A stretch of DNA of 17,131 nucleotides from a virus (IMGVR_UViG_2698536372_000004); one strand, 5' to 3'. Shown: positions 5,393 through 6,872, counted from the stretch's first letter. The notes: generated from the sequence alone by a model not told the origin. Numbers and translations are program-made.

Positions 5393-6118
5393 CTACTGAA
5401 TACGCTCAAACTCGATTACCCAAACCCAGGGATTAGCGCTCCAGCTTTCTTCGCCGTAGATGGATTCCCACAGGCGCTGGAACGCAACCTTGGCCATTGC
5501 GAAATCCCCCTTGGGAGTAAGGAATGTTCCCGGGTGATCAGGAAGCAAACTTCCAGCAGGCGGAACACCCTCATCCCTTGCATCGCATTCGCTGATATCG
5601 TTCAACCGCTCAACGCGCACGTTGGTAATTTCCAACAGGATGCGTGATGCCCATCGCGGCATGTGAATTGATGGACGCCACCCACCATCAAACTTTTCAT
5701 TCACAGTGTGAGGTTTCCAGTCGGCATCATCGGGTATCGACCATAAACCGTAATCACCAGGCTTTTGCTCACAACTGGCCCGATAAATCCTTGCTGCGTT
5801 CTTCTCATCGCCACGACAAAGGTTGTCGTTCCAGTCCACACTGCAACCATCTTCATTGCCTAATATCGCCCATGTTTCACGAACCCAAATTCGATCGCCG
5901 ACGATACCAAAGGGGCAATTGAAAACACTGCTTACACCATCAGCCCCGTACCACTGAAAACCTGCACCAATTTTTCTAACCATCACTGGTGCTTCTGGAC
6001 CAACTTCCGCAGGCTGATTTTTCATTATCCGCCGCGTCTGCGTTTTCCTTCCTTCGAGGATGGCCCGGACCATCTCATCGTTAAAAATCATGCCGCGCTT
6101 TTTCACTTCGCCTTTCAT
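5393..6118 (-). CDS. PUA/ASCH-like domain protein
   Basis: N-terminal MIFNDEMVRAILEGRKTQTRR followed by GDRIWVRETW fits the ASCH/PUA-like beta-barrel signature. RBS AAGGGGGA overlaps the stop of the upstream micro-ORF. Confidence 0.45.
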   Translation of the reverse strand: MKGEVKKRGMIFNDEMVRAILEGRKTQTRRIMKNQPAEVGPEAPVMVRKIGAGFQWYGADGVSSVFNCPFGIVGDRIWVRETWAILGNEDGCSVDWNDNLCRGDEKNAARIYRASCEQKPGDYGLWSIPDDADWKPHTVNEKFDGGWRPSIHMPRWASRILLEITNVRVERLNDISECDARDEGVPPAGSLLPDHPGTFLTPKGDFAMAKVAFQRLWESIYGEESWSANPWVWVIEFERIQ

Positions 6119-6127
6119 GCATCCCCC

Positions 6128-6214
6128 TTACCCATGTGCGACGATGCCGCCAAAAGTGATAGAGAACAGCCAGAAATAGATCGCGGCCATAATGATTTTG
6201 AATGCCGTGTTCAT
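6128..6214 (-). CDS. Unannotated 28-codon hydrophobic micro-ORF (MNTAFKIIMAAIYFWLFSITFGGIVAHG)
   Basis: Found by hand translation; below the ORF-track size cutoff. ATG 6214..6212 follows an AGGAG RBS at 8-nt spacing. Its TAA stop (6130..6128) sits inside the RBS of the next gene, suggesting coupled translation. One predicted transmembrane helix. Confidence 0.3.
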   Translation of the reverse strand: MNTAFKIIMAAIYFWLFSITFGGIVAHG

Positions 6215-6241: not shown

Positions 6242-6273
6242 ACATGCCGCGCCTTGCGGCATGTTTTTATTTT
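6242..6273 (+). terminator. Plus-strand-oriented terminator-like hairpin inside the minus-strand operon
   Basis: ACATGCCGC - GCCTT - GCGGCATGT (9-bp stem) followed by TTTTTATTTT on the plus strand. In minus-strand sense an A-run precedes it and no U-run follows, so it is not a terminator for the operon that contains it. Confidence 0.45.
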
Positions 6274-6283
6274 CACTTTCTCT

Positions 6284-6313
6284 GTTTTAAAAATCAAGAT
6301 TTATTAGAGCAAT
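6284..6313. repeat. 30-bp repeat unit, copy A (GTTTTAAAAAT-N6-TTATTAGAGCAAT)
   Basis: 26 of 30 positions identical to copy B at 8425..8454. The 13-bp core TTATTAGAGCAAT is identical; its last base is the first base of the stop codon of the gene at 6313..6819. Confidence 0.8.
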
Positions 6314-6819
6314 TATTGTTGGTGGAGAAGCGCGTTTTCATACTCCCTGACCATTAACGTAAGTACGCCGTGACTCCTGAAAACACGCGCCACTTCAATC
6401 TTATCTTCCAGCGCGAACGCAATTTTACTTAGACCAATTTTCTTCAGGAGATCAATCTTTGCTGGACCGTCATTTCTGTCATCGGTGGCAGGACGCATAG
6501 ATAGCAAAGGCTCAGCCCCATTTGTTACGTGCTTACGCAACCAGGCTCGTGTTTTATCCCTGGCTATCTCACAGCGCCCGGTTACAAACCAGAGGGTGTA
6601 AATGCCGGACAACTGGCGCACCATATCAATAACTGGAGTGATGGGAGCATCAGTGTCACAGGCAAGGTTAAACTCGTTCCAGTGCTCTGTTAATGCACCT
6701 TTGCCAGGTGGTGGAAGTAAATGCAGCCTGTCTTCCGTTGCCTCTGATATCGTCCCATAAATATCTACTATGACGATGTACGGACGTTCCTGGTGTGCGT
6801 GTTTATTGAAAATACTCAA
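6313..6819 (-). CDS. HAD-fold protein resembling the T4 polynucleotide kinase 3'-phosphatase domain; motif I degenerate
   Basis: From recalled T4 Pnk sequence: CDTD..I.P, VTGR(C/E), TR.W and the block ending AL(E/D)D(K/R)..V..F...GV all align. Motif I is VDIYGT rather than DxDGT, so the second Asp is replaced by Tyr. Apparent TTG start at 6819 after a GAGGAGGG RBS. Confidence 0.5.
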   Translation of the reverse strand: MSIFNKHAHQERPYIVIVDIYGTISEATEDRLHLLPPPGKGALTEHWNEFNLACDTDAPITPVIDMVRQLSGIYTLWFVTGRCEIARDKTRAWLRKHVTNGAEPLLSMRPATDDRNDGPAKIDLLKKIGLSKIAFALEDKIEVARVFRSHGVLTLMVREYENALLHQQ

Positions 6820-6835
6820 ATGCCCTCCTCATTGG

Positions 6836-6872
6836 ACGAAAAAAATGCTGGTGGGCGCACTCCACCAGCATT
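6836..6872 (-). terminator. Intrinsic terminator within the minus-strand operon
   Basis: Perfect 11-bp stem (AATGCTGGTGG / CCACCAGCATT) with a 7-nt loop, followed in minus-strand sense by UUUUUUU. The next gene's RBS and start are only about 17 nt further on. Confidence 0.7.

Follow-up and report, generated by a model that had tools for sequence, protein, structure and literature searches.

A viral DNA record (IMGVR_UViG_2698536372_000004) contains an open reading frame (ORF) whose product resembles the 3'-phosphatase domain of the T4 enzyme Pnkp, a HAD phosphatase, but in which the second catalytic aspartate of motif I is replaced by tyrosine, the canonical DxDGT reading DIYGT. The question posed by this locus is whether such a replacement defines a kind of protein or is a mutation of one gene. 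A preliminary description of the 17,131-nucleotide stretch analysed here, hereafter the window, took the loss of the aspartate to suggest either a non-catalytic binding protein, for example one that sequesters damaged RNA or DNA ends, or altered chemistry. Our analyses show that the ORF is the pap gene of a P1-like phage-plasmid, and very probably the window carries a crippling missense allele of this dispensable accessory gene, the most likely consequence of which is a tolerated loss of activity. Parts of this picture are already known: pap is annotated in the P1 reference, the exact protein has been deposited and loss of the Asp at position +2 of motif I has been studied in T4 Pnkp.

The ORF is present as first read, running from 6819 to 6313 on the minus strand and encoding 168 amino acids (Table 1). 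The window region is 97.9-98.7% identical in DNA sequence to phage P1 genomes, and likewise to many P1-like phage-plasmids; among complete E. coli genomes pap is present in approximately 660 records (659), nearly all of them plasmids. In the annotated P1 record (AF234172.1) the ORF is pap, described as 'putative P1 acid phosphatase' (AAQ14064.1). Other records name it '3'-phosphatase' or '3'-phosphatase, 5'-polynucleotide kinase', and the window protein (Pap) belongs to the same 90% cluster as the NCBI entry '3'-phosphatase [Escherichia coli]'. The window protein and P1 Pap are 95% identical in amino acid sequence, equal in length and have the same ORF boundaries; the DIYGT of the window protein is DIDGT in P1 Pap, and the eight other replacements between them are conservative, with none at catalytic positions. 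In P1, pmgR-pmgS are followed by pap, immediately after which come Op88, a C1 operator, and the promoters of pmgT. The window has the same order of pmgS, terminator, pap and Op88, which together with the high identity assigns the gene to the P1 pap orthologue group.

Table 1. Coordinates of pap, its catalytic codons and neighbouring features in the window
Feature	Position	Strand	Remarks
pap CDS, 168 aa	6313..6819	(-)	Stand-alone T4-Pnkp-type HAD 3'-phosphatase, orthologue of phage P1 Pap (AAQ14064.1)
TTG start codon of pap	6817-6819	(-)	Read from the sequence
Shine-Dalgarno GAGGAGG	6824-6830	(-)	4 nt 5' of the pap TTG start; read from the sequence
Codon 19 GAT, Asp19, motif I nucleophile (T4 Asp165)	6763..6765	(-)	Intact; invariant in the 122-sequence alignment
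Codon 21 TAT, Tyr21, motif I D+2 general acid/base position (T4 Asp167)	6757..6759	(-)	
Motif II V-T-G-R (Thr80, Arg82; T4 Ser211, Arg213)	6574..6585	(-)	Intact
Motif III Lys121 (T4 Lys258)	6457..6459	(-)	Intact; invariant in the family alignment, aligned to T4
Motif IV acidic pair Glu138-Asp139 (T4 Asp277-Asp278, Mg2+ ligand)	6403..6408	(-)	Intact
Intrinsic-terminator-like hairpin, pmgS/pap	6839..6872	(-)	11-bp stem (6844-6872), 6 G-C pairs, 7-nt loop, T-run to 6839
C1 repressor operator Op88/OpmgT	6297..6313	(-)	Abuts pap stop; start of next unit, pmgT
C1 operator Op86b	8389-8405	(+)	
C1 operator Op86a	8438-8454	(-)	
C1 operator Op83	12062-12078	(+)	
pmgS	6892-8154		Gene upstream of pap
Hydrophobic ORF, 28 aa from ATG	6128-6214	(-)	AGGAG ribosome-binding site; between pap and the next gene
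Second G+C-rich hairpin with T-run	6242-6264	(+)	Opposite to all local genes; just upstream of the small hydrophobic ORF
241-aa ORF	5393-6118	(-)	In place of PmgT
ppp, lambda-type Ser/Thr metallophosphatase	9154-9846	(-)	2.3 kb upstream of pap, same orientation
pmgP/pmgO homologues	9828-10454 and 10352-11014	(-)	Overlap of ~100 nt

The initial reading of the fold as T4 Pnkp-like and of HAD type is borne out by Pfam, by a family profile and by structure prediction. The Pfam model HAD_PNKP (PF25109) scores 38.1 bits against a gathering cut-off of 27.6 (E = 2.2e-9), a match that spans residues 53-158 only, motif I being placed through the profile and BLASTP alignments instead. PHROG 415 (phrog_415, 'polynucleotide kinase') is matched at 7e-53, and no NCBIfam model matches the protein. 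A single-sequence phmmer search of PDB gave spurious matches alone (de novo TIM barrels and SATB1), and a family profile was required to reach T4 Pnkp and Pnkp1 there; the profile, made from 122 sequences, matches Pnkp1 (4xrp, 1.2e-29) and T4 Pnkp (5uj0, 4.3e-25; 1ltq, 3e-24). An AlphaFold2 model computed with the 122-sequence alignment as input has a pLDDT of 94.1 and a pTM of 0.88. When this model was compared with PDB using Foldseek, the best match was the BeF3 adduct of the T4 Pnkp 3'-phosphatase (5uj0_A, E = 3.7e-8, TM 0.76) and the top 20 were T4 Pnkp or Pnkp1 throughout, with other phosphatase-type HAD structures ranking after them.

The T4 Pnkp 3'-phosphatase domain (5uj0, 1ltq, 2ia5) thus has its HAD/DxDxT fold and motif set in common with Pap. 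The two differ in that they share only ~20-25% identity, in that Pap has no 5'-kinase domain and in a ~17-residue insertion after motif I of Pap, with a conserved Arg and Trp. Pnkp1, from the bacterial Pnkp1-Rnl-Hen1 RNA repair complex (4xrp, 4xru), is the best profile match and a top structural match, but it has 312 residues, combines kinase and phosphatase and acts together with a ligase and a methyltransferase, and in this Pap differs from it. As first described, pap has no kinase domain and stands just past a terminator: the 168 residues are phosphatase only, without the P-loop 5'-kinase domain of a bifunctional kinase-phosphatase, and a Pfam search of ten ORFs around pap revealed no kinase, ligase or Hen1 domain. 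Standing alone is nevertheless the norm in this family and not a peculiarity of the window gene. An exhaustive HMMER search recovered 2210 cluster representatives at E <= 1e-3, most of them 140-200 aa long; within the best 150, about 140 are in this size range and eight have the two-domain length of a Pnkp-like kinase-phosphatase. Because most members are of this size, the stand-alone phosphatase is the usual form of the Pap family.

Residues 19-23 of the window protein are D-I-Y-G-T (codons GAT ATT TAT GGG ACG, 6751-6765 on the minus strand), and BLASTP against the T4 phosphatase domain aligns D19-I-Y21-G-T to D165-V-D167-G-T. Hence, Tyr21 stands opposite T4 Asp167, as had been proposed; no other Asp falls at the +2 position, and the predicted fold is not other than HAD-like. 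The rest of the catalytic apparatus expected of HAD_PNKP is retained, comprising Asp19, motifs II-IV and the arginines Arg31 and Arg82, of which Arg31 aligns to T4 Arg176 and is conserved. At motif IV, both E-D and D-D pairs are found in the Pap family (position 138 is E in 93 sequences and D in 61, and position 139 is D in 154). The window protein is by descent a member of the HAD_PNKP family and, by the criterion of the +2 Asp, a defective one.

Comparison with relatives shows how local this defect is. P1 Pap and all close homologues retrieved read DIDGT. We aligned 170 close and distant homologues, 162 of which aligned at column 21, and there Asp occurs in 159; the three exceptions are a Glu, a Gly and a Cys, and Tyr is absent. 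Conservation of the +2 Asp amounts to 98% across the Pnkp-type family, and it hardly varies in the 122-sequence alignment. In pap of plasmid pSA186_4 (NZ_CP022733.1) one base in 507 nt differs from the window gene, codon 21 being GAT in the plasmid and TAT in the window; a coding-strand G to T change at window position 6759 is the single difference that makes the codon TAT. Among 58 full-length copies of pap, 52 have GAT and six have TAT, the latter being the window and five further loci (L063-L067). It might be supposed that DxYGT defines a distinct pseudo-enzyme subfamily of HAD_PNKP. The motif itself speaks for this and nothing beyond it does, and the supposition is refuted by the absence of Tyr from 162 aligned homologues, by a nearest relative one base away and by the single recent origin of the allele documented below; we regard it as having virtually no chance of being correct. 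An apparent replacement of a catalytic residue in one sequence should be compared with close relatives before it is taken for a property of the family; in this case a single comparison reduced an apparent pseudo-enzyme to a point mutation.

L-2-haloacid dehalogenases such as L-DEX YL also carry DxYGT at motif I. A haloacid-dehalogenase reading of the window protein was considered and rejected, since its neighbours in both sequence and fold are Pnkp-type phosphatases and its Tyr is one base from Asp. No 2-haloacid dehalogenase is among the matches listed in the Foldseek top 50, and the likeness in motif I is coincidental.

The distribution of the Tyr codon bears on whether it is real. None of the complete E. 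coli genomes, PLSDB plasmids or phage records exactly matched a 61-nt probe centred on codon 21. Its best matches were 60/61, and with every match listed included these comprised 193 E. coli genome records, 201 PLSDB plasmids and 11 phages; the probe matched 193 of the 659 pap-carrying E. coli records, and the DNA comparison at codon 21 covers the less divergent pap alleles. A 29-mer containing the Tyr codon had no match in IMG/VR, GTDB species genomes or JGI metagenomes; its Asp version occurs in 59 IMG/VR contigs. Because the exact DNA scans were blank, across six DNA collections in all, and with a single base separating the window from pSA186_4, a sequencing or assembly error in the window record looked possible. 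Exact-protein and contig look-ups overturned this view. The exact window protein (P0172) is found in a public collection on 51 contigs (NCBI accessions CTY20965.1, EES7601965.1, EES8811492.1 and EET1276051.1, under the name '3'-phosphatase'), by a look-up that takes in exact matches only and has decayed descendants of the Tyr allele outside its scope. Its counterpart with Asp (P0171), otherwise identical, occurs on at least 1000 contigs, and 2547 sequences make up the 90% cluster. A contig index placed the Tyr protein in 74 blocks and returned five distinct neighbourhoods, four from NCBI GCA assemblies and one from ENA. With an identical protein on 51 contigs and in at least five independent assemblies, the flanks of which differ in SNPs and in gene content, an artefact is exceedingly improbable.

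The five Tyr loci are 99.84-100% identical to the window over pap and pmgS and 99.5-99.9% identical over 11-17 kb, and the Asp-bearing loci are each more distant from the window than these. The Tyr loci and the window differ mutually by 14-53 SNPs and by gene mosaics downstream of pap, where three of the loci (L064, L065 and L067) have different gene sets further downstream. A test for recurrence did not find D21Y in three other common pap backgrounds; in the background of the window itself D21H, D21A, D21G, D21V, D21E and D19N were not found, and D21N occurs on a single contig. Since the Tyr loci are the nearest relatives of the window, D21Y arose once and was inherited while the lineage diversified. 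It is a minority allele of one sublineage with a single origin. No second lesion in pap is present in the five Tyr loci seen, despite 0.1-0.5% divergence and reshuffling of the accessory region, a situation that fits short-term neutrality and also fits a retained function. The allele cleanly marks the lineage of one group of P1-like plasmids and provides a ready-made natural catalytic mutant with which to probe the function of P1 Pap.

What the substitution would do to the protein can be predicted from T4 Pnkp. [quoted passage not shown] The mutants D167A and D167N show no activity towards 3'-TMP, RNA 3'-p or RNA 2'-p. They keep ~7% of cyclic phosphodiesterase activity, convert RNA>p to RNA 3'-p and hold the product in the active site, and they shield pre-formed RNA 3'-p from the wild-type enzyme (PMC3592404).

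The mechanism of wild-type Pap is expected to be the same. It would be a stand-alone HAD (DxDxT) phosphatase that depends on Mg2+ and is of the same type as the T4 Pnkp 3'-phosphatase, acting through a covalent Asp19-phosphate intermediate, with Asp21 presumably protonating the sugar-oxygen leaving group and then activating the water that hydrolyses Asp19-phosphate. One G to T transversion, in changing Asp21 to Tyr, removed the general acid/base and left in place all the other residues needed to bind Mg2+ and phosphate. The preliminary description was right that the general acid/base is missing where Tyr takes the place of Asp at +2, and the window allele, having no equivalent of T4 Asp167, resembles the laboratory mutants D167N and D167A and not the wild-type T4 enzyme. 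By this analogy Pap-Y21 should retain binding of Mg2+ and of phosphate ends but lose phosphomonoester turnover, in so far as mutants carrying Asn and Ala are a guide to the bulkier Tyr. The likeliest result of D21Y would be that phosphomonoesterase turnover is lost or nearly so, making this a null or strongly hypomorphic allele. We infer both the catalytic defect of Pap-Y21, from T4 Pnkp D167A and D167N, and the neutrality of the allele. The literature searched yielded no biochemical data for P1 Pap or the Tyr allele, and a search of it for functional studies of P1 Pap led only to a CRISPRi essentiality screen and a comparative-genomics paper.

Wild-type pap is a constrained gene, with a pooled pN/pS of 0.13 over 32 distinct alleles (codon 21 excluded); this purifying selection implies that wild-type Pap does something useful. 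In P1, CRISPRi knock-down scored pap as non-essential (PMC10695390), and in P1-like phage-plasmids the gene borders the hypervariable region (PMC9603915). Variants of pap that are truncated, frameshifted or internally deleted are present in E. coli and Shigella assemblies (P0005, P0006, P0010, P0014 and P0016). Thus, pap is repeatedly damaged in nature though its intact alleles are under purifying selection. A lone crippling missense allele, at a few percent and in one lineage, is the expected product of mutation with drift or hitchhiking. On the account that we prefer, D21Y, having arisen once in one sublineage, has been inherited through the accumulation of SNPs and the exchange of accessory genes, probably persisting since pap is dispensable for P1 propagation.

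The proposal of a non-catalytic binder or of altered chemistry has its precedent in the end-sequestering T4 mutants (PMC3592404), but it does not stand as a statement about a type of protein, since the Tyr results from one G to T change in one sublineage. It could still apply to the allele itself. Pap-Y21 might have gained or changed function, as an RNA 2',3'-cyclic phosphodiesterase, as a trap for 3'-phosphate ends, or as both; in the trapping version RNA>p would be opened to RNA 3'-p and the end capped instead of being converted to 3'-OH, so that, for example, the 3'-phosphate is saved for ligation by host RtcB. T4 Pnkp D167N and D167A do turn RNA>p into RNA 3'-p, which they sequester (PMC3592404), the window protein keeps its nucleophile and every ligand of phosphate and Mg2+, and the Tyr allele has persisted in a diversifying sublineage. 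Against this, the allele has a single origin with no recurrence in other pap backgrounds, its frequency is low (51 contigs, compared with at least 1000 for the parent Asp allele), and Tyr is fixed in none of 162 homologues, just three of which are without Asp. Moreover, a bulky Tyr may block the site where Asn or Ala would not, and the neighbouring genes show no co-change with the Tyr allele. On the T4 precedent a gain or change of function is plausible chemically, but we consider it improbable. It is a shade less probable again that Pap-Y21 is a selected natural counterpart of T4 Pnkp D167N, opening RNA 2',3'-cyclic phosphates and clamping 3'-phosphate ends. Were such a selected clamp real, it would alter the fate of RNAs broken by ribonucleases of the host or of competitors, which might become ligatable by RtcB, for instance, or hidden from sensors. 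For biology at large the allele is of little consequence.

The substitution might also be functionally silent, if Tyr21 itself, a rearranged water or a neighbouring residue provided proton transfer, or if the substrate had a good leaving group. Active HAD members with other +2 residues exist for substrates that need no general acid, with Thr in P-type ATPases and Tyr in L-2-haloacid dehalogenases, and the Tyr allele is otherwise intact. However, the 98% conservation of the +2 Asp in the Pnkp-type family and the complete failure of T4 D167A and D167N on monoesters both count against silence, as does the fact that pap is under purifying selection and yet Tyr has become established nowhere else. 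A silent substitution is accordingly as doubtful as a gain of function, and a tolerated loss of activity is the explanation that we retain.

Four C1 operator matches, counterparts of P1 Op88, Op86b, Op86a and Op83, are present in the window, compared with 0.08 expected by chance, and Op88 has one mismatch to the C1 consensus (ATTGCTCTAATAAATTT). Op88 abuts the pap stop, from which it follows that the C1-controlled pmgR-pmgS unit ends with pap. The hairpin between pmgS and pap was found by a consensus scan and is retained in both the MFE and the centroid RNA folds, and no sigma-70-like promoter was found between the two genes. Though it closes the unit, pap lies beyond a strong terminator.

Downstream of pap the window departs from P1, having a 241-aa ORF where P1 has full-length PmgT. 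This ORF has no Pfam or NCBIfam match at the thresholds used and is where the hypervariable region of P1-like phage-plasmids begins; RefSeq features of some related plasmids include an 'ASCH domain-containing protein' anywhere in the 17-kb match. Between pap and this gene lies the small hydrophobic ORF (MNTAFKIIMAAIYFWLFSITFGGIVAHG), which from its sequence may be a single-pass membrane peptide. In Salmonella phage SJ46 a 'membrane protein' is among the features anywhere under the window match.

Upstream, Ppp (Pfam Metallophos, 9e-16) is linked to pap, and the linkage is kept in a distant P1-like relative (L068, Ppp at 1179-1880) whose Pap is 60% identical. Lambda phosphatase also acts as a 2',3'-cyclic phosphodiesterase (PMC2190708), and by analogy Ppp and Pap could jointly heal 2',3'-cyclic phosphate ends. 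The same relative carries, between pmgS and pap, a 101-aa ORF and an Rv2179c-like gene (PF16473; 4135-4683). PF16473 we take to be a family of 3'-5' exoribonucleases, and linkage to Ppp and to the Rv2179c-like exonuclease hints that Pap processes nucleic-acid 3' ends. Beyond Ppp, the overlapping pmgP/pmgO homologues both resemble the C-terminal part of the MptE-like pyrophosphokinase model weakly and below threshold (E = 3e-4 and 6e-5).
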